Of a stretch of DNA of 64,000 nucleotides, positions 50,901 through 64,000 are shown one piece after another (within the stretch, counting starts at the first letter, position 1; each line of letters begins with the position of its first letter). The DNA is taken from the NCBI RefSeq assembly GCF_009931435.1, contig NZ_CP043414.1; one strand, 5' to 3'. A model generated the notes under the pieces. It had not been told where the DNA came from, made no database searches, and saw only the letters and a program-made list of their open reading frames with translations. The translations under genes were made by a program, and so were the position numbers. The DNA comes from Escherichia coli. Its GTDB lineage: Bacteria; Pseudomonadota; Gammaproteobacteria; Enterobacterales; Enterobacteriaceae.

Positions 50901-51764
50901 ATGAAACAACACCAATCGGCGGATAATTCTCAGGGCCAGCTTTACATTGTACCGACGCCAATCGGCAATCTGGCAGATATCACCCAGCGTGCGTTGGAGG
51001 TTTTACAGGCCGTTGATCTGATTGCCGCCGAGGATACGCGTCATACCGGTTTACTGCTGCAACATTTTGGAATTAACGCCAGGTTGTTCGCCTTGCACGA
51101 CCATAACGAACAACAGAAAGCCGAAACGTTACTGGCGAAGCTGCAGGAAGGGCAAAACATTGCGCTGGTGTCCGATGCCGGAACGCCACTAATTAACGAT
51201 CCCGGCTATCATCTGGTGCGTACCTGCCGAGAAGCGGGGATTCGCGTGGTGCCACTACCGGGGCCGTGTGCTGCTATCACTGCATTAAGTGCTGCGGGTT
51301 TACCATCCGATCGTTTTTGTTATGAAGGCTTTTTACCTGCCAAATCAAAAGGCCGCCGTGATGCGCTAAAAGCCATTGAAGCGGAGCCGCGCACGCTGAT
51401 TTTTTATGAATCGACCCACCGTCTGTTAGATAGCCTGGAAGATATCGTTGCGGTATTAGGCGAATCCCGCTACGTCGTTCTGGCGCGTGAGCTGACCAAA
51501 ACCTGGGAAACCATTCACGGCGCGCCCGTTGGCGAGCTGCTGGCGTGGGTCAAAGAAGATGAAAACCGTCGCAAAGGTGAAATGGTGCTGATTGTTGAAG
51601 GCCATAAAGCACAGGAAGAAGACTTACCTGCCGATGCCCTGCGCACGCTGGCGTTGTTACAGGCTGAGCTTCCGCTGAAGAAAGCGGCGGCGCTGGCGGC
51701 AGAGATTCACGGCGTGAAAAAAAACGCGCTGTATAAGTATGCGCTGGAACAGCAGGGGGAGTGA
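50901..51764 (+). CDS. rsmI: 16S rRNA C1402 2'-O-methyltransferase RsmI
   Basis: 287 aa [35 protein letters not shown]; divergent from lpoA. Confidence 0.93.
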
Positions 51765-51813
51765 TTACAGGCGTCGCAGCAAGAATAGAGCTGCAACGCC
51801 TACACCGGGCGAT

Positions 51814-52581
51814 TTAACGACGACACATCTCATCAATCATGCATGTGAAATAGTTATGCAGCCATAAAAACGAAGCCGGGATAGCGGTAGAGACTTTAGC
51901 CGTGAGAAAACGTTCTGTCGCATCCTGCTTTCCTTCGCCAGTCACCAGTAGCAAAACTTCGCGGGTATTGAGAATATCCTTCAGGCCTAAGGTGATCCCA
52001 CGAGTCACGGGGCGACCCGCGGTTTTTAACATCTCATGTTGCTGTGTTCTGGCATCAAGTTGACTGATATGGCAGGCCGGTTGCAGGCTTTCTCCCGGTT
52101 CGTTCAGCCCAAGATGACCGTTTTTCCCCAATCCGAGAACGCATAAATCCAGACCGCCTTTGCGCGCAATCAGGTTCGTTACCCGTTCGCACTCTGTCTC
52201 ATTTATCTCTTCGGAGCGAAAGCTGATGAGCTGGTCTTCACGTAGCCCCAGCGGCTGCACGATATGCTGTTGAAGGAAAGTTTCGCAGGTGCCAGGCATC
52301 GTTAATGGCAGATCCACCCATTCGTCGAGCTTCACGAAGGTGAGCTGGCTGACATCAACCTGCTGCTGGTGGATTTTTTCTACCAGATAATGATACGTCA
52401 GTAATGGCGTGGCTCCGGTCGCCAGGCAAATCACGGCATCCGGTTTGCTACGGATCACGGCCAATAAATATTCGCTGGCACGTTCACTTAACGCCGTATA
52501 GTTTTCAACTTGTTGAAGGGTTTGCACAGGATGAAATTCCTTTAGTAAAGAGGCACCACCAGACGCAGTGCCTCGTTCCAT
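51814..52581 (-). CDS. agaI: NagB-like galactosamine-6-phosphate deaminase/isomerase AgaI
   Basis: 255 aa ORF with NagB/Pgl-type sequence; last gene of aga cluster; exact start uncertain. Confidence 0.85.
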   Translation of the reverse strand: MERGTASGGASLLKEFHPVQTLQQVENYTALSERASEYLLAVIRSKPDAVICLATGATPLLTYHYLVEKIHQQQVDVSQLTFVKLDEWVDLPLTMPGTCETFLQQHIVQPLGLREDQLISFRSEEINETECERVTNLIARKGGLDLCVLGLGKNGHLGLNEPGESLQPACHISQLDARTQQHEMLKTAGRPVTRGITLGLKDILNTREVLLLVTGEGKQDATERFLTAKVSTAIPASFLWLHNYFTCMIDEMCRR

Positions 52582-53373
52582 TTACAAAATGCCGAATGCG
52601 GAACAAACAATAGAGAGCACAAAAGTCACGCCGATTAACAGCACCGGATGCGCTTTTTTCACCCGCAGGAAGTAATACATCAGCAGGGTATAGGCCATCG
52701 GTAAAATGTTCGGGAAGACTTTATCGAAGAAATCCTGCTGCAGGGCGACGCTGTGGGTACTGTCGATCGCAAACGATGTCACCACGTTAATATGCACATA
52801 CGAAGCGATCAGCCCGCCGATTACCGTGATCCCGAGGATGGTTGCCGAACGAGCAATCATCTGCGAGTTCTCTCGCACTTTATCGATCGCCTTCACGCCG
52901 ACTGAATAACCGACGTGGGTCCAGCCGACGCGCAGGAAGAAGATAAGCAGGTAAACGGCGAAAAATAGAATCGGCCCCAGCAAGTTTCCCTGGCTGGCAA
53001 ATGATGAGCAAATTCCCGCCATAATCGGCAATAAGGTAAACCAGAAAATCGCATCGCCAATCCCGGCGATTGGGCCAAACAGTGCCACTTTGAGGCCTTT
53101 AATGGTGTCGCGGTTTTCTCCTTTTTCTTCCATCGAAATTAATAACCCCATCAGGAATCCGACCAGATTCGGGTGGGTATTAATAAATTCGAGGTTATCT
53201 TTCATCGCCGCGCTTAGGCCCGGTTTGTCGTCCTTATAAATCTTTTTCAGGATCGGCAACATCGCCCAGGTAAAACCGCCCGCCTGCATCCTTTCGTAGT
53301 TAAAGCTTGCTTGTAGCAGTGACGAACGAAAGCCCAGACGGGTGATATCTTTTTTACTGATTTCAGATCCCAT
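52582..53373 (-). CDS. agaD: PTS galactosamine-specific EIID component AgaD
   Basis: ORF 52582..53520 trimmed to MGSEISKKDITRLGFRSSLLQASFNYERMQ with SD AGAGGA; 263 aa. Confidence 0.9.
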   Translation of the reverse strand: MGSEISKKDITRLGFRSSLLQASFNYERMQAGGFTWAMLPILKKIYKDDKPGLSAAMKDNLEFINTHPNLVGFLMGLLISMEEKGENRDTIKGLKVALFGPIAGIGDAIFWFTLLPIMAGICSSFASQGNLLGPILFFAVYLLIFFLRVGWTHVGYSVGVKAIDKVRENSQMIARSATILGITVIGGLIASYVHINVVTSFAIDSTHSVALQQDFFDKVFPNILPMAYTLLMYYFLRVKKAHPVLLIGVTFVLSIVCSAFGIL

Positions 53374-54166
53374 TGCTGTAGTCCTCTTCTTCATTTTTAC
53401 TGGCAACGGGCTGCGGTTGCGCTTGCTGCCGGGATTTCGCATTGAAAAACTCATACACCGCAAAGCCTGCGCCCAGTACGGCAACCGGCAACAGGTTGCT
53501 GACCTGGATGTAGCAAACAAACAGGAAACCGGCGATCAGGTAAGGGATATATTGCGCTTTGAACATTACGCGCAGCAGCAAGCCAAAACCAACGGCAGGC
53601 AGAATACCGCCAGCCACTTCAAAGCCGTGGGTCAGCCAGGCGGGCATCGCTTTCACCAGCGCCTGCATCGCCCCTTGCGCCAGGTAAGTACAGAGGAAAG
53701 CAATCACCGCATACGCTGAAGCGACGATGAGCATCGTTGTCCAGTTAAGTCGGGAAAACGCTGCTGTATCCGCCTCTTTCGCACAATTATCAGCTTTGGT
53801 CATGAATAATGAGAAAGCGGAATAGAAGAACAGAATGACGTACTGCATTAACAAACTAAACGGCAGACCAAGACCAATTGCCGTTTTGGCATCGACGCCC
53901 GTAGACCATGCAATGACGGTGGTCATCAGACCCGCCATAATTGGGTTGGGCGGCTGAACACCACCTGCGGGGGTTAATCCGGCGAAAGCCAGTTCTGTCA
54001 GGCCACCGGTAATTAAGCCAATCTGAATATCACCGAGAATAGCACCTGTAAGGGTACAAACGATTATCGGGCGGAATAAAAATAAGGCTTCCAGCCAAAA
54101 ATCAATCCCCAGAACGAAAACTAACGCCGCCAGGGATAATCCCTGAATTAGGGTTATTTCATGCAT
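53363..54166 (-). CDS. agaC: PTS galactosamine-specific EIIC component AgaC
   Basis: 267 aa MHEITLIQGLSLAALVFVLGIDFW. Confidence 0.92.
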   Translation of the reverse strand: MHEITLIQGLSLAALVFVLGIDFWLEALFLFRPIIVCTLTGAILGDIQIGLITGGLTELAFAGLTPAGGVQPPNPIMAGLMTTVIAWSTGVDAKTAIGLGLPFSLLMQYVILFFYSAFSLFMTKADNCAKEADTAAFSRLNWTTMLIVASAYAVIAFLCTYLAQGAMQALVKAMPAWLTHGFEVAGGILPAVGFGLLLRVMFKAQYIPYLIAGFLFVCYIQVSNLLPVAVLGAGFAVYEFFNAKSRQQAQPQPVASKNEEEDYSNGI

Positions 54167-54204
54167 TTTTATTACCTCAAACCAGTATTAAGGCGATTTT
54201 AAAT

Positions 54205-54681
54205 TTAGTCAGGGATTTGTTCTTTTTGATCGCCGGGGACGTCCTGAATAAAAATATTCACACCGCGTTGTTTAATAAAGCGTAAGTCCGCGAGATCTTG
54301 ATCGTCGATATAAACTTTACTGCTGATTTGCTTTTTACCTTCCGAGAAATGCATATTGCCGACGTTGACATCTTTCAGGTCAATGCCACCTTCTATCAAT
54401 TTACGTACCGTTTGCGGCGTACGGCAAATCAAGAAGATTTTCTGATGCGGTGCAGCTTTGCCGATGACGTTAATGGTTTTTTCGATAGTAAAGAAACGAA
54501 TGCCAAAGCCGTAGGTTTCCGCGGTAATACCCATTAATTTTTGTTGAATATCATCGTTAGCGACAACATCATCCACGACTACCAGCAGATTTGCACCGAT
54601 GGTAGATGTCCAGGTCACACCAACCTGACCGTGAACCAGACGGTTATCAATACGGGTTAAGAGAATATTTGGACTGCTCAT
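54205..54681 (-). CDS. agaB: PTS galactosamine-specific EIIB component AgaB
   Basis: 158 aa MSSPNILLTRIDNRLVHGQVGVTW. Confidence 0.92.
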   Translation of the reverse strand: MSSPNILLTRIDNRLVHGQVGVTWTSTIGANLLVVVDDVVANDDIQQKLMGITAETYGFGIRFFTIEKTINVIGKAAPHQKIFLICRTPQTVRKLIEGGIDLKDVNVGNMHFSEGKKQISSKVYIDDQDLADLRFIKQRGVNIFIQDVPGDQKEQIPD

Positions 54682-54847
54682 TGTGTAATCCTCACCATAA
54701 AGTTGAATAATATAATTTTTTTAAATATATTATTGTTGCGATATTTTACTGATGTATTTATTAAGGTTTAGTTATCTCCTTTACCATTAAGGCACTCCCC
54801 GATATTAATCGGGAAGTACATTGGGATAAATCATAAAAAACTAATGA

Positions 54848-55720
<873 letters not shown>

Positions 55721-56875
55721 TTATGCCTGCCACGGATGAATGATTACGCCTTGCACCACGCGGTTAACGGTGCCGCTGGCTGATGGGGTATCCGGCGTAT
55801 TGCCCATATGCAGCGACTGCATCAGTGCAAACGTCTGGGCGTACATCAGGAAGCAAAATGCCTGCTCAACGTCGATAAAGTGACGTGACGGCGGCAGGAT
55901 GATATGTGGACCGGCGGTAATAACGTCGTTGCCTTCCGCGGCGATGGCGATTACGCGCATTGCCTGGTTGTCACGGCGGAGTTCTGCCAGCAGATCAAGA
56001 TCATACTGACGCGTATAGGGGTGGCTGGAGACAAACACCACCACCAGCGTTTCGTTATCGACCAGCGATTTCGGGCCATGACGGAATCCGGTCGGGGAAT
56101 CATAAAAGGCCGCCAGTTTACCCGCCGTCAGTTCCAGTACTTTCAGCGCCGACTCGCGTGCTGCGCCCTGTAAGCCACCGCTGCCGAGATAAACGATCCG
56201 TTTCCACGGTGCGTAACCAAACACACCTTCGCTGAAATCGCCCAGTGAGGTCAGGATCGCCTGGCAACGATCCGCTACGTCGCGGAAGGTCTGGCTATTG
56301 ATTGTCTCAGGTGCGAAAACCGCGAGGCAGCTGGCCATCATAGTGGTAATGCTGCTTGTCATTGCAAAGCCGCGATCGTGCGTTTCTGCGGGCATCAGCA
56401 GGGCAAACGCGTTGTCGCTGTTGATCGCGTTTTGGTAAAGAGCGCCCGCTTCGTTGCAGGTGATCGGCAGGTGATAGCATTCCGGTACAAACTGATTCGC
56501 CAGTTCCACGGCGGCGACGCTTTCCGGGCTGTTGCCAGATCGACCGAAGGAGATCAACAGCAGTGGATGAGCTGGATTCAGGTAGTCCATCGGATTAGTG
56601 ACCAGATCGGTGGTCGGTACGGCGCTGAAGTTTTTACCGGTATGGCTGGCGAGCCACGGCGCGATGATATCACCGATAAATGCCGAGGTTCCGGCTCCGG
56701 TCAGGATGATCCGCAGATTCTCTTTGCGCAGTAACGGTTCAAGGAAGTTATTGAGCGCGGAACGTAGCGCGTCGATGTTGGTGAGTGAACGGATCCATGC
56801 GCGAGGCTGATGGCGGATCTCTTCTTCAGTCCATGTGCCGGTGGTGGCGGCCGCTGGGGTGTAATTTTCTGGCAT
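55721..56875 (-). CDS. agaS: SIS-domain galactosamine-6-phosphate deaminase/isomerase AgaS
   Basis: 384 aa with two SIS domains. Confidence 0.93.
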   Translation of the reverse strand: MPENYTPAAATTGTWTEEEIRHQPRAWIRSLTNIDALRSALNNFLEPLLRKENLRIILTGAGTSAFIGDIIAPWLASHTGKNFSAVPTTDLVTNPMDYLNPAHPLLLISFGRSGNSPESVAAVELANQFVPECYHLPITCNEAGALYQNAINSDNAFALLMPAETHDRGFAMTSSITTMMASCLAVFAPETINSQTFRDVADRCQAILTSLGDFSEGVFGYAPWKRIVYLGSGGLQGAARESALKVLELTAGKLAAFYDSPTGFRHGPKSLVDNETLVVVFVSSHPYTRQYDLDLLAELRRDNQAMRVIAIAAEGNDVITAGPHIILPPSRHFIDVEQAFCFLMYAQTFALMQSLHMGNTPDTPSASGTVNRVVQGVIIHPWQA

Positions 56876-56928
56876 AACTCAATCCTTAGTCTGATGAACT
56901 TGACTTCCGGCATTGCAGGCTTCGCTTG

Positions 56929-57045
56929 CCTTTCGTTTCATTTCACTTGGTGATTCGTTTCGTTGATTAAAATCTATAGAAAAGAAATCGAAAGTTCAAT
57001 GGAGAAAAAAGAAATAAAACGAAATTTGTGATCGTTGAAAGAAAA
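56929..57045 (-). promoter_or_regulatory. agaS promoter region with AgaR-type TTTC-repeat operator motifs
   Basis: CGTTTCATTTCACTTGGTGATTCGTTTCGTT and GAAATCGAAAG...AAAACGAAATTTG repeats upstream of agaS. Confidence 0.55.
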
Positions 57046-57099
57046 GACAAGGGAAGATTAAAGGATTGCGTGATAACGTCGCTATGTGTACCGATTGCT

Positions 57100-57146
57100 G
57101 GAAGCGGCGTACCGTAGAGCGGATAAGACGCGCCAGCGTCGCATTC
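57100..57146. repeat. partial REP element in agaA-agaS intergenic region
   Basis: GGATAAGACGCGCCAGCGTCGCAT REP-like half. Confidence 0.5.
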
Positions 57147-57225
57147 GACACCACTGCACAGATTAAAACGAAAGAAAAAGAAAGGCCTTACGGGGGAAGT
57201 GAAGGCCCAATAAAGGAGCAAACCA

Positions 57226-58359
57226 TCAAAACGAAGCTAATTGACCCTGAATCCAGATTTGTTGCACATGCAGTCCGCTATTCAGCGCAACGACGCTGGC
57301 GCGTTTGCCCGGTTTAAGTGATCCCAGAACACCATCAACACCCAGCATACGCGCCGGATGCAGCGATGCCATATGGATGGCTTCCGCAGGCGTTACGCCC
57401 GTCAACTCGACCATGTTGCGCACTGCCGCATCGACAGACAGCGTACTGCCCGCCAGCCCACCGGACGCGGTACGGACAACGCCACCGTGCATCTGCACTT
57501 CTTCACCACATAACGTATAGCGACCATCCGGCATCCCGGCTGCCTGCATCGCGTCGGTGATGAGCACGATTCTCTCTTTCGCACAGCAACAACACAGCGA
57601 CATCGCCGCCGGATGAACATGATGCCCATCGGCTATCAGTTCCAGCCAGGCGCGCTTGTCCGTTAAACCCGCGCCAACCATTCCCGGTTCGCGGTGATGT
57701 AATCCTGTCATCCCGTTATAGCAATGCACCAGGCCGTCTGCGCCAGCATCAAATGCGGCGCGGGTTTGTTGCCAGGTTGCTGCGCTATGTCCCAGCATTA
57801 CCCGCACGTTCTGCTGTTTAAGATGACGAATGGCTTGTAACGCGCCCGTTTTTTCCGGTGCCAGCGCCACCACGCGCAAGGTATGCCGTGAAACAGCAAT
57901 CAATTGATCCAGCTCGGCAATTTCCAGCTCGCGAAACAGCTCCGGCGGATGTGCGCCTTTATTCTGCGGCGTGAAGTACGGCCCTTCGAGATAACTCCCC
58001 AGCACTTGCGCACCAGGTCCACCGCGCTGGCAGCGTAGCGCAATACGTTCCAGCGCCGCATGAATGGTATTAAGCGGCGCGGTTACGGTAGTCGGCAACC
58101 AACTGCCGACACCTTCCCGTGCCTTGTGCATTGCCAGCTTGTCGAGCGCATCCGGCGCGTCATCCATAACATCAACGCCCGCACCACCGTGTACATGGGT
58201 ATCGATATAAGCGGGGCAGAGCAGTTCCGCATCGCGTTCAGTCACGCCCACTGGAATCGGTTCGATTGCTGCGATTACACCGTCAGCAATACACAACTGA
58301 TGGTCATCGAGCCATCCCTCTTCAGTCAGCAGCCTTCTGGCGCGCAGAACGTGTGTCAT
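57226..58359 (-). CDS. agaA: N-acetylgalactosamine-6-phosphate deacetylase AgaA (full length)
   Basis: ORF 57226..58380 trimmed to MTHVLRARRLLTEEGWLDDHQL with SD GAGGAAGGAA; 377 aa; NagA-type HxH metal motif (DTHVHGG); start overlaps agaF stop (ATGA). Confidence 0.9.
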   Translation of the reverse strand: MTHVLRARRLLTEEGWLDDHQLCIADGVIAAIEPIPVGVTERDAELLCPAYIDTHVHGGAGVDVMDDAPDALDKLAMHKAREGVGSWLPTTVTAPLNTIHAALERIALRCQRGGPGAQVLGSYLEGPYFTPQNKGAHPPELFRELEIAELDQLIAVSRHTLRVVALAPEKTGALQAIRHLKQQNVRVMLGHSAATWQQTRAAFDAGADGLVHCYNGMTGLHHREPGMVGAGLTDKRAWLELIADGHHVHPAAMSLCCCCAKERIVLITDAMQAAGMPDGRYTLCGEEVQMHGGVVRTASGGLAGSTLSVDAAVRNMVELTGVTPAEAIHMASLHPARMLGVDGVLGSLKPGKRASVVALNSGLHVQQIWIQGQLASF

Positions 58360-58790
58360 ATTCCTTCCTCGACCGGACATTCTTCATGGCAGCGGCCTAA
58401 CTCGTCTACCAGACTGGTCAGCCCACGGTGTCCACACTCCAGCGCCTGCACACGGAATTCTTCACCGCTTAACCCTTCGCGCTCCAGCACCATTTCCAGT
58501 AACAGTTGCAAATTGGTGCCGGTGATCACTTCATAGCCCGGTTTTTGCATCGCCAGCGTTGAAGCCACGCGAAACGGTGTGCCGCCCAGCAAATCTGTCA
58601 GAAAAACAATGCCGTCTTCACAATCCAGTTTGGCAATGGCTTCTTCAAGCTGCGATGTAAGCAGCGCAGTGCTTGAGGTTTCCGGAAAATCAATGGCGAT
58701 AAACTGCGACTGCTCGCCGAGGATTTGCTTCATTGCTTTTTCCATGCCGCTGGCAAATCCGCCATGCCCTGTCAAAATAATACTTAACAT
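58356..58790 (-). CDS. agaF: PTS N-acetylgalactosamine-specific EIIA component AgaF
   Basis: 144 aa MLSIILTGHGGFASGMEKAMKQILGEQ. Confidence 0.9.
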   Translation of the reverse strand: MLSIILTGHGGFASGMEKAMKQILGEQSQFIAIDFPETSSTALLTSQLEEAIAKLDCEDGIVFLTDLLGGTPFRVASTLAMQKPGYEVITGTNLQLLLEMVLEREGLSGEEFRVQALECGHRGLTSLVDELGRCHEECPVEEGI

Positions 58791-58807
58791 CTAATACCTC
58801 ATTGTAT

Positions 58808-59692
58808 TTAAAGGAAATGACAGAATTTACCGACGATGCCAAGAACCACGGTAACCGCAATCAGGCGCAGCGGACTCCAGCCGCGGCGTACCAGCCAGAA
58901 CATGGTCAGGGTGTAGACCAGCGGTAAGAAGGCAGGCATCAGTTTGTCGATAACGTCAGCCTGCAGCTTAACCACTGCATCGCCCGCCGTGATTTCCAGC
59001 GTGGTGCTTAAACGAACATAGGTTGCCACCAGCGCGCCGATCACCGTCATCCCAACGATAGACGCTGCATGGCCGACTTTTTTGGTATTCGCTTTAATGA
59101 GTGGGATCGCCGCCACGCCCATGCGGTAAGCATAATGCGCCAGACCAAAACGCAGCCCCAGGTGTACCACGTTAAACAGCACAATAAACACGACTGCGCC
59201 AAGAATAGAGCCTTGCAATGCCAGACTGGCACCAATCCCGCCACAAATCGGCAGTAACGTTAGCCAGAACATGGCATCGCCAATCCCACCGAGCGGCGCA
59301 CCGACGGCAATTTTGGTGCTCTGAATACTGTTAACGTCCTGCTTAGAACGCTCCATCGCGAGGATAATGCCAATAACAAACGTCACCAGAAACGGATGGG
59401 TATTGAAGAAACCCATATGCCCCTTCATGGCGCGCGCCAGGTCGCGTTTATTAGTGTGGATCTTTTTCAGAGCAGGCAGCAGACCGTACAACCAGCCGGA
59501 AGCCTGCATACGTTCGTAGTTAAAAGACGCTTGTAACAGCATGGAACGCCAGGCGACGCGGTTGATATCTTTTTTTGTTAGCTCCGCGCCAATGCTCTGA
59601 TCTTCATACACGTTTTCATTGACGCCTGTCAGTAGTGTTTCTTCGTTTTCACTGACGTTCGGCAGGGTAGTTTGATTAGATGCCATCTTCAA
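58808..59692 (-). CDS. agaE: PTS N-acetylgalactosamine-specific EIID component AgaE
   Basis: 294 aa ORF (alternative Met 2 codons in at 59686); paralog of AgaD (shared LLQASFNYERMQA); overlaps agaW 3' end. Confidence 0.88.
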   Translation of the reverse strand: MKMASNQTTLPNVSENEETLLTGVNENVYEDQSIGAELTKKDINRVAWRSMLLQASFNYERMQASGWLYGLLPALKKIHTNKRDLARAMKGHMGFFNTHPFLVTFVIGIILAMERSKQDVNSIQSTKIAVGAPLGGIGDAMFWLTLLPICGGIGASLALQGSILGAVVFIVLFNVVHLGLRFGLAHYAYRMGVAAIPLIKANTKKVGHAASIVGMTVIGALVATYVRLSTTLEITAGDAVVKLQADVIDKLMPAFLPLVYTLTMFWLVRRGWSPLRLIAVTVVLGIVGKFCHFL

Positions 59693-60455
59693 ATTCCTCT
59701 TTCTGTGCCGCAGGTTGAGTCGGTTCAGGAGATTTACGCAGCAGGTCGATCAGCGCCATCGCCAGCGCGGCGGCAGCAATAGCCAGCACCGGTAACTTGA
59801 GCCAGGCGGCGGCAACGAAGCCCAGGATGAAGTAGGGGATATAGACGTTTTTCATCATGATTTTCAGCAGCACGGCAAAACCGATTGCTGGCATGATGCC
59901 GCCCGCGACGCCAAGGCCGTCGATTAACCGTTGCGGCAGGACATCAATGATGGTTTTTGCATGCTCCGCGCCGAAGTAGATAGGCAGGAAAGCGCAGAGA
60001 AAATAGAACGTGCCGAGTGCCAGCAATGCCAGATAGTTCACGCGTTCAATGCCGCGAGTATCGGCGTTCTCCGCCATCCGGTCGCAGCGGGACATCACGC
60101 CAGACATCACCGAGAACAGGAAGGTAATCCCCATCTGTACTGCGACAGCGAAAGGTACGGCGACACCGACCGCGACATCCGGTTTCACGCCAGTAGTAAT
60201 GGCAAACGCCGTGCCGACGATAGTTCCGATAATCACGTTAGGCGGCTGTGCGCCCGCCAGCGGTGCCAGCCCCATCCACACCAGTTCCAGCGTACCGCCG
60301 GTTAAAATACCGGTATGCAGATCGCCAAGCACCAACCCAACTAACGGGCCGAGGACCACCGGGCGGTGCATATGGGTTAGGCCGTTAAACATATCCAGGC
60401 CAGCGATAAAGGCGATAATGCCCAACGCAAATGCCTGCAACAGACTGATTTCCAT
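59676..60455 (-). CDS. agaW: PTS N-acetylgalactosamine-specific EIIC component AgaW (full length)
   Basis: 259 aa MEISLLQAFALGIIAFIAGLDMFNG; paralog of AgaC. Confidence 0.9.
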   Translation of the reverse strand: MEISLLQAFALGIIAFIAGLDMFNGLTHMHRPVVLGPLVGLVLGDLHTGILTGGTLELVWMGLAPLAGAQPPNVIIGTIVGTAFAITTGVKPDVAVGVAVPFAVAVQMGITFLFSVMSGVMSRCDRMAENADTRGIERVNYLALLALGTFYFLCAFLPIYFGAEHAKTIIDVLPQRLIDGLGVAGGIMPAIGFAVLLKIMMKNVYIPYFILGFVAAAWLKLPVLAIAAAALAMALIDLLRKSPEPTQPAAQKEEFEDGI

Positions 60456-60465
60456 GATGAATCCC

Positions 60466-60939
60466 TCAAAGTAATTTAAAGAGGTCCACAGCAGGCTCTG
60501 TCGGGACGCCCTGAACGAAGCATTCCACCCCAGCGGCTTTCAGGTCGTTAAATGCTGCGATATCGCCCGCATCCACAGAAACCGTTTTGGCGATTTGTTG
60601 CTTGCCATTGGCGTAGTGCATATTGCCAACGTTAATGCGATTCACCGGAACGCCACCTTTCACCAGCGTCAGGAAATCGGCAGGTGTTTTACAAACCAGC
60701 AGGATTTTCTGTCGATCGGCGGCGCGATGAATGTTGTCGATCACTTTTTGCAGCGTCCAGAAACGTACGGCGATCCCTTCTGCCAGCACCATTTCCATCA
60801 GGTTTTGTTGTACCGGATCTTCGGCAACCTCATCATTGGCTACCAGCACCAGATTTGCCCCCGCAAATCCGACCCACTGAACGCCGACCTGACCGTGAAT
60901 CAAGCGTTCATCAATCCGGCTTAAAACAATATTTGGCAT
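60466..60939 (-). CDS. agaV: PTS N-acetylgalactosamine-specific EIIB component AgaV
   Basis: ORF 60466..60975 trimmed to MPNIVLSRIDERLIHGQVGVQW with SD GAGGAA; 157 aa. Confidence 0.9.
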   Translation of the reverse strand: MPNIVLSRIDERLIHGQVGVQWVGFAGANLVLVANDEVAEDPVQQNLMEMVLAEGIAVRFWTLQKVIDNIHRAADRQKILLVCKTPADFLTLVKGGVPVNRINVGNMHYANGKQQIAKTVSVDAGDIAAFNDLKAAGVECFVQGVPTEPAVDLFKLL

Positions 60940-60961
60940 AGCGTGTTCCTCTTTGTTTTGC

Positions 60962-62242
60962 TTATTGGCCTTCACAGGCTGTGTGGTACTGCGCCAGGAT
61001 GTCCTGAATATGGTTGATAATGAGTTCCCGTGGCGTTGGCTGCAGCTCGCCGGAGCGAACTTTCACGTATTGCAGCGGCAGGTACTGACTGATGAGCGGC
61101 AGCGGAATTGGCGCATCCGCCAGGTTACGAACCAGATGAGCGAAAGCGTCATCAATCTGGCTGTCCGGCCAGTAATAGCGCACGCGATCCGAGTAGCTAT
61201 AACCACGCGCCAGACGACGCGCGTTGCCGTCACCGTGGTAGTGGCTTTGCCAGTATTCCGGGCGGTCGAGCATCACGTTTTCCAGCACCTGACGCAGACC
61301 GGAACAGGCTTTTGCTGGCACCAGTTCTTCTTCAATCGCCGCCAGAGAGAACAGAGCTTCACGCAGGGCGAAGGTCAGCGCTGGGCCAACTTTCAGAATG
61401 GCAAAGTGGTCAATCACCAGCTGGCGCAGCGATTGCGGCGTTTGGTAATCGGTAGAGTGCGCTTCGAAAATCAGCGTTTCGTAGTTTTCGACCATCTGGC
61501 TTAAGGCGGTCGCTTTAGCTGGCTGATAATCAATAACGTTGGTGTGATCGAATTCGACGCCGGGTTGTACCACCAGAGCAATGATGCGTGGCCAGATGGC
61601 ATTCAGACCTTGCTTTTCAAAGGCGTGACGATGGGCTTCCAGCGTGGCGCGGGCGGCATCCGGCGTAGTGACCGCCAGCTCGCTTAAGGTTTCATGCGCG
61701 CCGCCAGGTACCGGCACTTCGGTACCAATGACATACACCAGATCGGCTTCGCCAAAGTGTTCACGGCAGGTTTCTTCCGCGACTTTAGCCAGTCGGGCGG
61801 CGCGTTCAGCCACGATGTCATCGGTTAAGGGAACCGGATCGTCCTGACAGGACATGCTGCAATCAAGGTGAATTTTTTTGAATCCTGCCGCCACGTAGCT
61901 TTTAATCAAATCATCGGCATTGGCCATCGCCTGAGCTGCAGGCAGGTTTTGCCAGCGGTTTGGCCCCAGATGATCGCCACCCAGAATCAACGCGTCTTGT
62001 GGGAAATTCAATGAGTCGGCGAGCTGACAAACAAAGCCGCGAAAATCGGCGGGTGTCATTCCGGTATAACCACCGAACTGGTCCACCTGATTGGATGTCG
62101 CTTCAATCAGTAACGGTGTTTGGTTTACACTGGCGTAGCGGATTGCAGCTTCCAGCACCAGCGGGTGTGCGGAACAAACGGCATAAATCCCATTTGTTTT
62201 GCCCTCTTTGTGCTGCCTCACCATTTCTGTCAGATGTTTCAC
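60962..62242 (-). CDS. kbaZ: tagatose-bisphosphate aldolase non-catalytic subunit KbaZ (AgaZ)
   Basis: GTG start at 62242 with SD GGAGAGG, giving (M)[26 protein letters not shown]; 426 aa; ORF-track ATG at 62308 is a possible longer alternative. Confidence 0.85.
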
Positions 62243-62490
62243 TTTCCTCTCCAGTTCAGATTGCTGCGATATTAATCTTTCGTTTTGTTTCAGTTGATAC
62301 TGCGTCATGGTGAGATAAAAATAAAACGAAAGATAATAGTTTTCTGATCTGATTCACAAAAGAAACATAATGAAAGTCACTGAAACGAGAGTAGCTTGCG
62401 TCAATGGGCAAGGTGGGCTTGCATTTGCTCAATAGAAAGGCGTAAATAGGCAAAACGAAATGAAACGAAAGTTTTACGAAAGGACTTACT
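62243..62490. promoter_or_regulatory. divergent kbaZ / agaR promoter region with AgaR-type operator repeats
   Basis: ATAAAACGAAAGATAATAGTTTTC, GAAACATAATGAAAGTCACTGAAACGAG and AAACGAAATGAAACGAAAGTTTTACGAAAGG (TTTCGTTT-type repeats on both strands). Confidence 0.6.
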
Positions 62491-63300
62491 ATGAGTAATA
62501 CCGACGCTTCAGGCGAGAAGCGAGTGACAGGCACCAGCGAGCGACGAGAACAAATCATTCAGCGCCTGCGACAGCAAGGGAGTGTGCAGGTTAACGATCT
62601 GTCGGCATTGTATGGCGTATCTACTGTGACGATCCGCAACGATCTGGCTTTTCTGGAAAAGCAGGGGATCGCTGTGCGGGCCTATGGCGGCGCGTTGATC
62701 TGCGATAGCACGACGCCGTCAGTCGAGCCATCAGTGGAAGATAAAAGCGCGCTGAACACTGCGATGAAACGCAGCGTTGCGAAAGCTGCCGTTGAGTTGA
62801 TTCAGCCAGGTCATCGGGTGATCCTCGATTCCGGGACCACCACGTTTGAGATTGCTCGTCTGATGCGCAAGCACACCGACGTAATTGCGATGACCAATGG
62901 TATGAACGTAGCCAATGCACTGCTGGAAGCAGAAGGCGTTGAACTTCTTATGACCGGCGGGCATCTGCGGCGTCAGTCGCAATCTTTTTACGGCGATCAG
63001 GCTGAACAATCGCTACAAAATTACCACTTTGATATGCTTTTTCTCGGCGTAGATGCGATCGATCTGGAGCGCGGCGTCAGCACGCATAATGAAGATGAAG
63101 CCCGTTTAAACCGTCGGATGTGCGAAGTTGCGGAACGGATCATTGTGGTCACCGATTCCAGTAAGTTCAACCGTTCCAGTTTACATAAGATCATTGATAC
63201 TCAACGTATCGACATGATCATTGTTGATGAAGGCATTCCTGCGGATAGTCTGGAAGGCCTGCGAAAGGCTGGGGTTGAAGTGATTCTGGTCGGGGAGTGA
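62491..63300 (+). CDS. agaR: DeoR-family repressor of the aga cluster, AgaR
   Basis: 269 aa; N-terminal HTH ...[17 protein letters not shown]...; divergent from kbaZ. Confidence 0.93.
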
Positions 63301-63832
63301 GAAATGGCGCCCGTAGCTCAACACGGATGTGTTCGGCGGGCATTGTTCACTGACCTTTTACAGCCTGTTTTCTGCTCAAATTAGAAACTTCAGCAAAGGT
63401 AATGCAAATGCATTATTAACAGCAGAAAGCGCCAGAACCAACGAAAAAAGAGAGCATGTTTCCCATTTTGCGAGGCGCTTTCCAAATCACCCGCTCAGTC
63501 CCCTCGCGTTGCAGTGCTAAAAGCACTATTTTGCAAATTTGTGACCTTCTTCACTCTCCCAAAAGGCGGTGATCTCACGGTGGGGATCCACTTTCTGCTT
63601 TCGCTTTTCTGCCGTTAGCACTCGCTATTTCGGCATCTCTTCTTTTCACTTTTTCAGTTTGTCATTTTCATTTGCGGTCAACCGAAAGTTCTGGAGTCGA
63701 TTTTTCCAGGTTTCAACGCCGTTGTCGCGTTCACAAATTCACTTCTTTTCTTCTGATGTAATGCATTCAAAAGAAAATGAAAGCTGCAAAATGCAAGAAT
63801 GCAACGAAATACTTTTTCAGGGAGCGATAAAC

Positions 63833-64000
63833 ATGCTAGATAGCCTAAGACGCCGCGAACAAATCATTGATTTGTTATGTGCCCAGGGAAGCGTACGCGT
63901 TGAGCCGCTCAGCATCCATTTTGGTGTCTCATCGGTCACGATCCGCAATGACTTACGGTATCTGGAGCAAAAAGGTTGCGTCATGCGTTCCTATGGCGGT
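63833..64000 (+). CDS. DeoR-family (AgaR-like) transcriptional regulator, N-terminal 56 codons only; runs off window end
   Basis: ATG 63833 with SD CAGGGAG 7 nt upstream; MLDSLRRREQIIDLLCAQGSVRVEPLSIHFGVSSVTIRNDLRYLEQKGCVMRSYGG, shares SVTIRNDL and R(A/S)YGG with AgaR; not in ORF track because no stop in window. Confidence 0.7.
   Translation, partial: MLDSLRRREQIIDLLCAQGSVRVEPLSIHFGVSSVTIRNDLRYLEQKGCVMRSYGG

Follow-up and report, generated by a model that had tools for sequence, protein, structure and literature searches.

The aga/gam cluster of Escherichia coli is a well-described system whose genes, pathway and regulation, as well as the deletion that disrupts it in K-12, have all been published previously. 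All 13 genes are present in E. coli C, an Aga+ Gam+ strain, and strains B, W and Crooks share agaV through agaI; REL606 grows on N-acetylgalactosamine (GalNAc), whereas MG1655 does not (PMC3668189, PMC3032704, PMC3446290). The deletion reported for K-12 measures 2.3 kb (PMC3668189, PMC3032704). EDL933 and Sakai are Aga+ Gam-, the Gam- state of O157:H7 resulting from amber stops at codon 8 of agaC and codon 72 of agaI, and a single substitution in AgaF, G91S, renders O157 spinach-outbreak isolates Aga- (PMC3668189).

Here, we analyzed a stretch of 64,000 nucleotides from an E. coli genome (assembly GCF_009931435.1, contig NZ_CP043414.1), referred to below as the window. It very probably contains a complete, wild-type kbaZ-agaVWEFA operon, which forms the aga/gam regulon's GalNAc branch, at its usual place beside agaR and agaS-kbaY-agaBCD-agaI (Table 1). 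Sequence comparison covered K-12, O157:H7 NE1127, RMDEC465 and 2020CK-00188, and the status of E. coli C and B was taken from papers.

Table 1. Features of the aga/gam locus, with positions in the window and curated model.
Feature	Position	Strand	Description	Model, score in bits (cut-off), coverage
agaS-kbaY-agaB-agaC-agaD-agaI	51814-56875	-	second operon: deaminase, aldolase, galactosamine (GalN) transporter, AgaI; completes the 13-gene cluster	
agaA-agaS spacer	56876-57225	.	weak terminator-like hairpin, then T-rich run; REP-like element; agaS promoter region with TTTCRTTT repeats	
agaA	57226-58359	-	GalNAc-6-phosphate deacetylase, NagA paralogue, 377 aa; only the 3' part remains in K-12	TIGR00221, 287 (226), profile positions 5-379 of 380
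agaF	58356-58790	-	PTS EIIA common to the GalNAc and GalN transporters, 144 aa; absent from K-12	NF040761 AgaF, 218 (130), profile covered end to end
agaE	58808-59686	-	PTS EIID for GalNAc, 292 aa; absent from K-12	NF040760 AgaE, 618 (500), positions 1-292 of 292
agaW	59676-60455	-	PTS EIIC for GalNAc, 259 aa; only the 5' part remains in K-12	NF040757 AgaW, 411 (300), all 249 profile positions
agaV	60466-60939	-	PTS EIIB for GalNAc, 157 aa	NF008508, 320 (180), positions 1-157 of 157
kbaZ (agaZ)	60962-62242	-	tagatose-1,6-bisphosphate aldolase, non-catalytic subunit; starts at GTG; 426 aa	NF012002 KbaZ equivalog, 897 (707), residues 1-426
agaR-kbaZ divergent control region	62243-62490	.	published Pr and Pz promoters; clustered TTTCRTTT repeats	
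agaR	62491-63300	+		NCBIfam NF007316, 577 (351), full length

The initial annotation described uninterrupted, full-length reading frames for the six genes of the GalNAc branch. This is confirmed here: the genes contain no internal stops, have the lengths of their RefSeq homologues and match NCBIfam equivalogs with E-values between 5e-65 and 1.7e-270, while careful re-translation revealed neither a frameshift nor a premature stop, and the coding sequences align to those of RMDEC465 and O157 with no indels. The genes lie on one strand in the order kbaZ-agaV-agaW-agaE-agaF-agaA, a synteny shared with annotated E. coli genomes. Both overlaps noted earlier are real, with agaF and agaA sharing an ATGA at 58359-58356 (the agaA ATG over the agaF TGA) and the start of agaE lying 11 nt inside the 3' end of agaW (59676-59686); the remaining spacers are 22, 10 and 17 nt. 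Every start in this run is preceded by a Shine-Dalgarno-like sequence as read from the DNA. At the GTG start of kbaZ, GGAGAGGAAA lies 5', and the program-made reading frame extends to an upstream ATG at 62308.

At the protein level, the translations retain His15 of AgaV within an RLIHGQ motif, as well as His9 and Gly91 of AgaF. AgaA aligns over its whole length with solved NagA structures, keeping the HxH, LEGP, GHS, HxYN and TDA motifs, and scores only 224 bits against the housekeeping-NagA model NF008371, under its cut-off of 483. The roles of these phosphorylation-site and catalytic residues are established for EIIA and EIIB of the mannose family and for NagA. AgaW has the same protein sequence as in O157, RMDEC465 and 2020CK-00188. 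KbaZ differs from its K-12 and O157 counterparts by eight substitutions; many public contigs encode exactly this KbaZ, and one of them (in GCA_902709095.2) is 99.98% identical over 6 kb. A large public collection contains no record of the exact AgaA protein (377 or 384 aa), whose residues C23, A71 and N360 are absent from all three comparison genomes. Substitutions relative to O157 are mostly synonymous (agaA, pS 0.18 and pN 0.012; agaE, pS 0.17 and pN 0), which argues for continued purifying selection.

The contrast with K-12 drawn in the initial annotation, namely, loss of agaE and agaF with truncation of agaW and agaA, is likewise borne out and matches the published 2.3-kb deletion. Alignment to the K-12 agaW' and agaA' remnants (blastn and MAFFT) places the segment missing from MG1655 at 57775-60079 of the window, comprising 2,305 bp: agaE and agaF in their entirety, together with 404 nt from the 3' end of agaW and the initial 585 nt of agaA. 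This loss leaves agaW and agaA as pseudogenes in K-12, with agaE and agaF absent and agaS, kbaY and agaBCD retained. The junction falls at a 3-bp ACC microhomology within an imperfect 10-mer, CGCTGCGACC in agaW and CGCAGCAACC in agaA. The segment absent from K-12 is carried, counted as presence of the DNA, by 4,944 of the 5,426 complete E. coli genomes (91%), making an intact GalNAc branch ordinary, and the K-12 junction occurs in only 370 of them (6.8%). The intact branch is the common state in E. coli, and K-12 is the exception. The endpoints and population frequencies are useful bookkeeping; they restate published knowledge and matter little past correct annotation.

The second operon and the divergent agaR complete the full 13-gene cluster proposed earlier. 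The 13 genes are free of internal stops, and all 13 pass a curated NCBIfam cut-off, agaS that of an AgaS-family subfamily model and kbaY, agaBCD and agaI those of equivalogs. Eleven are equal in length to their annotations in O157:H7 NE1127, RMDEC465 and, where present, K-12; agaI, at 768 nt, has the length of its RMDEC465 counterpart and exceeds the O157 and K-12 genes by 12 nt, and kbaY exceeds that of 2020CK-00188 by 3 nt. AgaR shows no amino acid difference from the K-12 or O157 protein. Codon 8 of agaC encodes Gln and agaI lacks an amber codon. None of the published inactivating lesions (AgaF G91S, the agaC codon-8 amber, the agaI amber and the K-12 deletion) occurs in this locus. Of the strains offered earlier as full-cluster Aga+ Gam+ examples, E. 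coli C stands (PMC3668189); O157 does not, being Aga+ but Gam-, with both stops present in NE1127.

Both control regions are enriched in the octamer TTTCRTTT, which we take to be the half-site consensus of the AgaR operator, the sites here being presumed. The window contains 18 matches, five of them in the agaR-kbaZ region (62278-62470) and four in the agaA-agaS spacer (56931-57173), so that 9 of the 18 fall within about 600 bp; for the longer CTTTCRTTTY, three of six matches lie in the agaR-kbaZ region, with 0.86 expected for the whole window. The spacer is the least conserved part of the locus relative to K-12 and O157 (88.8% identity, with 5-bp indels), and its terminator-like hairpin after agaA (57209-57184) folds with a z-score of only -1.25. 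A sigma-70 scan of the minus strand yielded no convincing promoter and fewer matches than shuffled sequences, although the scan is crude and uninformative; the kbaZ and agaS promoters are expected to need activation. Rfam structured RNAs were not matched between 47185 and 64000.

Together, these genes are predicted on good grounds to allow the source strain to grow on GalNAc and galactosamine. In the published pathway, a mannose-family PTS consisting of AgaV (IIB), AgaW (IIC), AgaE (IID) and AgaF (IIA) imports GalNAc and phosphorylates it, with AgaF serving the GalN transporter AgaBCD as well. AgaA then deacetylates GalNAc-6-P, a step in which NagA can replace it, and AgaS converts GalN-6-P to tagatose-6-P by deamination and isomerization. 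Following phosphorylation, tagatose-1,6-bisphosphate is cleaved by the KbaY/KbaZ aldolase. In the same published scheme, AgaR keeps the agaR, kbaZ and agaS promoters repressed until GalNAc or GalN is present. The ability to use mucin-derived GalNAc and galactosamine, as predicted here, bears on gut colonization.

We consider it improbable that the cluster is open-framed yet phenotypically silent, the strain being rendered Aga- by altered regulation or by a missense change, in AgaA or KbaZ for instance. Inactivation by one residue has a precedent in AgaF G91S of the O157:H7 spinach-outbreak isolates (PMC3668189), AgaA is the allele with residues unique among the compared genomes and no exact record, and divergence within the locus is greatest in the agaA-agaS spacer. 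However, growth on GalNAc does not require AgaA, since NagA takes over its role (PMC3668189), and the unique residues of AgaA fall in variable parts of the NagA alignment. In addition, the four PTS proteins match those of Aga+ O157 exactly or almost exactly, Gly91 is present, and the low pN/pS favors continued selection.

The source is a divergent E. coli lineage: across the aga locus, nucleotide identity is about 96.5% with K-12 and reaches 98.0% at most with any of the complete E. coli genomes. The locus is mosaic. The yraHIJK and prlF-yhaV genes that flank it in K-12 and O157 are missing from the window. A rare island, present in 3 of the 5,426 complete E. coli genomes, starts at 63420, just outside the GalNAc branch, and opens with a second AgaR paralogue (44% identical) that has comparable TTTC-rich repeats upstream; the island of a related genome goes on with genes for a ROK kinase, a Gfo/Idh/MocA protein, a ChbG deacetylase, a GH4 phospho-beta-glucosidase and PTS IIC and IIB. 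This island is more unusual than the aga cluster, itself conventional. A speculative scenario, to which we give little credence, is that the two repressors cross-regulate, which would couple GalNAc catabolism to uptake of an N-acetylated disaccharide that, once broken down, feeds the aga pathway.

Less probable than a silent cluster, and in our opinion barely credible, is that the operon's main substrate here is something other than GalNAc, candidates being glucose (with agaR mutated) and a product of the neighboring PTS island. The Aga PTS is reported to carry glucose in E. coli C evolved to have agaR mutations (PMC9628945), and the AgaR paralogue with its repeats does adjoin the cluster; yet all proteins fit GalNAc-specific equivalogs far better than paralogous models, AgaR is unchanged from that of K-12, and we observe no sequence sign of altered specificity. 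Finally, chance or mis-framed reading frames are ruled out by the full-length equivalog matches and codon-level comparison, and a hidden frameshift or stop was found in none of the 13 genes, which show no coding indels relative to two intact genomes.

The preferred reading, a complete GalNAc branch in a conventional cluster, agrees with the known systems. The E. coli C aga/gam cluster (Brinkkotter et al. 2000; Hu et al. 2013, PMC3668189) agrees with the window in its 13 genes, their order, their orientation and their open frames, and is likewise arranged as two operons and a divergent agaR. K-12 MG1655 (b3131-b3141) is collinear with the window outside the deletion, with AgaR identical and KbaY, AgaV and AgaD each differing by one residue. 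In O157:H7 of the EDL933/Sakai type, compared here through NE1127, the GalNAc branch is intact with the same gene lengths and overlaps; AgaW and AgaE are identical, AgaV differs by one residue and AgaF by two, and NE1127 carries amber codons in agaC (Q8*) and agaI, neither of which is seen in the window. The GlcNAc system nagE-nagBACD, whose NagA is the paralogue of AgaA (itself under the NF008371 cut-off), and the mannose PTS ManXYZ, with AgaVWEF as mannose-family IIB, IIC, IID and IIA scoring under the ManX and ManZ cut-offs, are paralogous systems distinct from the aga system.

The GalNAc branch of the aga cluster is confirmed to be intact, with kbaZ, agaV, agaW, agaE, agaF, and agaA lying back-to-back as six ORFs on the minus strand (62242 to 57226) at exactly the coordinates of the initial annotation. 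The operon-style overlaps it described are also found: ATGA at 58359-58356 is common to agaF and agaA, and there is an 11-nt overlap between agaW and agaE. Spacers of 22, 10, and 17 nt separate the other genes, and a Shine-Dalgarno-like sequence can be read ahead of every start. The mechanical ORF of kbaZ runs upstream to an ATG at 62308, with GTG being the start in RefSeq homologues. Together with agaR and agaS-kbaY-agaB-agaC-agaD-agaI, all 13 aga/gam cluster genes are therefore present as claimed, none with an internal stop.

Genes of the aga/gam cluster and alignment blocks shared with K-12 MG1655
Feature	Window position	Strand	Details	NCBIfam score/cut-off (bits)
agaR	62491-63300	plus	upstream of kbaZ, divergent	
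kbaZ	60962-62242	minus	426 aa; GTG start behind GGAGAGGAAA	897/707
agaV	60466-60939	minus	157 aa	320/180
agaW	59676-60455	minus	259 aa	411/300
agaE	58808-59686	minus	292 aa	618/500
agaF	58356-58790	minus	144 aa	218/130
agaA	57226-58359	minus	377 aa	287/226 (TIGR00221)
agaS	55721-56875	minus	downstream of agaA	
kbaY	54848-55708	minus	downstream of agaA	
agaB	54205-54681	minus	downstream of agaA	
agaC	53363-54166	minus	downstream of agaA	
agaD	52582-53373	minus	downstream of agaA	
agaI	51814-52581	minus	downstream of agaA	
Block 1	63346-60080		K-12 3277810-3281076	
Block 2	57784-51857		K-12 3281067-3286994	

All six GalNAc-branch proteins pass the equivalog cut-offs of curated NCBIfam models, with end-to-end profile coverage for KbaZ, AgaV, AgaE, and AgaF, 249 of 249 positions for AgaW, and positions 5-379 of 380 for AgaA; the other seven cluster genes also score above curated cut-offs. 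AgaA aligns to solved NagA structures along its whole length and keeps the HxH, LEGP, GHS, HxYN, and TDA motifs. Its score against the housekeeping-NagA model NF008371 (224, under the cut-off of 483) fits a paralogue and not NagA itself. In a codon-by-codon comparison with three annotated genomes retaining the branch, plus K-12 where the gene exists, we observe no internal stops in the window's aga genes and no coding-sequence indels. The six genes have the same lengths as in the compared genomes, and retranslation revealed neither frameshift nor premature stop, so that the claim of uninterrupted full-length ORFs stands. Divergence from O157:H7 is chiefly synonymous (agaA, pS 0.18 and pN 0.012; agaE, 0.17 and 0; agaW, 0.11 and 0), and the AgaW and AgaE proteins are identical to those of O157. 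AgaA residues C23, A71, and N360 were unseen in the three genomes compared, and its exact sequence was not found in a large protein-position index; that of KbaZ occurs in 525 blocks of the index.

MG1655 aligns in two blocks, each approximately 96.5% identical to the window. The K-12 junction reads CGCTGCGACC|TGGCAAC, and the window holds a left repeat copy, CGCTGCGACC, ending at 60080 in agaW, and a right copy, CGCAGCAACC, ending at 57775 in agaA; K-12 therefore lacks window positions 57775-60079 (2,305 bp). The breakpoint falls within a 3-bp ACC microhomology inside an imperfect repeat matching at 8 of 10 positions, and MAFFT places the same gap. K-12 has lost agaE and agaF entirely, together with 404 nt from the 3' end of agaW and 585 nt from the 5' end of agaA, which bears out the deletion that the initial annotation had described. 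This extent agrees with the annotated agaW' and agaA' pseudogenes and with the published 2.3-kb deletion (PMC3668189; PMC3032704).

Among 5,426 complete E. coli genomes, counted for presence of the DNA and not for reading-frame integrity, 4,944 contain the segment deleted in K-12 (4,930 with at least 80% of it in one place), and the K-12 junction occurs in 370, many of them laboratory derivatives. The agaB-agaI stretch is present at ≥80% coverage in 5,245. The window thus shows what is normal for the species, with K-12 as the exception; an intact aga cluster is the already known, majority state.

Across its 64 kb, the window contains 18 copies of the octamer TTTCRTTT (7.8 expected), nine of them in the two aga control regions, agaR-kbaZ (62278-62470) and agaA-agaS (56931-57173). 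These regions also hold five of the six CTTTCRTTTY matches (0.86 expected). Given this enrichment, the repeats are putative operators. The agaA-agaS spacer contains a REP-like element (57060-57160; ...GAATGCGACGCTGGCGCGTCTTATCCGCTCTAC...) for which Rfam gave no match; no other stretch of the locus is as poorly conserved against K-12 and O157, identity being 88.8% with paired indels of 5 bp at 57079 and 57093. Elsewhere, Rfam gathering-score hits at 15218-47185 (greA, rimP, and S15 leaders, SraG, two naRNA4, and two tRNAs) are those expected for this chromosomal region, none looking unusual.

Following the published pathway (PMC3668189), GalNAc would be taken up and phosphorylated by the mannose-family PTS AgaV, AgaW, AgaE, and AgaF, with AgaF common to this system and AgaBCD. 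AgaA would deacetylate the product, being dispensable because NagA substitutes; AgaS would act as deaminase/isomerase, AgaI not being needed, and KbaY/KbaZ would cleave tagatose-1,6-bisphosphate.

The 20-44 kb portion of the window shares 99.9% identity with strain 2020CK-00188, approximately 99% with a handful of other genomes, and at most 97.5% with the remaining ~5,400, and the source therefore belongs to a divergent E. coli lineage; our guess is cryptic clade I. The best match over the aga locus is only 98.0%, and similarity to the individual relatives varies with position along it. Judged by flanking sequence, no complete genome is closer than 2020CK-00188 (99.9% across 24 kb), yet it is only ~97.8% identical across the aga genes, and the locus is therefore a recombination mosaic. 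Such mosaicism is common in E. coli. Over 6 kb, the window is 99.98% identical to a public contig, GCA_902709095.2. 2020CK-00188 lacks the agaBCDI present in the window (L003 2693-7714 versus window 51814-54700), carrying instead malX-like and MalY/PatB-like genes, a LysR regulator, and an MBL-fold hydrolase; gene content thus varies even among near relatives.

Directly 3' of agaR, a rare accessory island (63420-64000) runs past the window end, its 581 bp matched in only 3 of the 5,426 genomes. Its first gene, with its ATG at 63834, encodes a second paralogue that shares 44% identity with AgaR; TTTC-rich repeats lie ahead of the gene, among them TTTCATTT at 63666 and 63775. In genome RMDEC465 (L001 15834-22825), the island continues with ROK, Gfo/Idh/MocA, ChbG, GH4 6-phospho-beta-glucosidase, PTS IIC, and PTS IIB genes, whereas K-12, O157, and 2020CK-00188 have the prlF-yhaV toxin-antitoxin pair at this site. 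At the other end (51764-51857), the window has no yraHIJK fimbrial operon, which in K-12 and O157 lies 3' of agaI, so that agaI here adjoins rsmI. K-12 homology stops ~40 nt ahead of the agaI stop codon; the last AgaI residues therefore differ (LHNYFTCMIDEMCRR in the window, LHSNFICLIN... in K-12), as does its length (255 versus 251 aa).

None of the published natural inactivating lesions (PMC3668189) is present in the window. AgaF residue 91 is Gly, G91S being the change that renders spinach-outbreak O157 Aga- (PMC3668189); AgaC codon 8 is Gln, and agaI has no amber codon. RMDEC465, which matches the window best across the aga region, carries a premature agaB stop, W24* (L001 6206-6682). Point inactivation of the galactosamine branch is thus recurrent in natural strains, but the window is free of it. 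E. coli C is Aga+ Gam+, agaV-I is common to B, W, and Crooks, and phenotype arrays record growth on GalNAc in REL606 and not MG1655 (PMC3032704, PMC3446290). We strongly infer that the source strain would be Aga+/Gam+. The initial interpretation is supported apart from its use of O157:H7 as a fully intact Aga+/Gam+ example: EDL933 and Sakai are Aga+ but Gam- due to amber codons in agaC and agaI (PMC3668189), and the compared O157:H7 genome, NE1127, has the agaC Q8* already published as well as a stop within agaI, whereas the window has neither.
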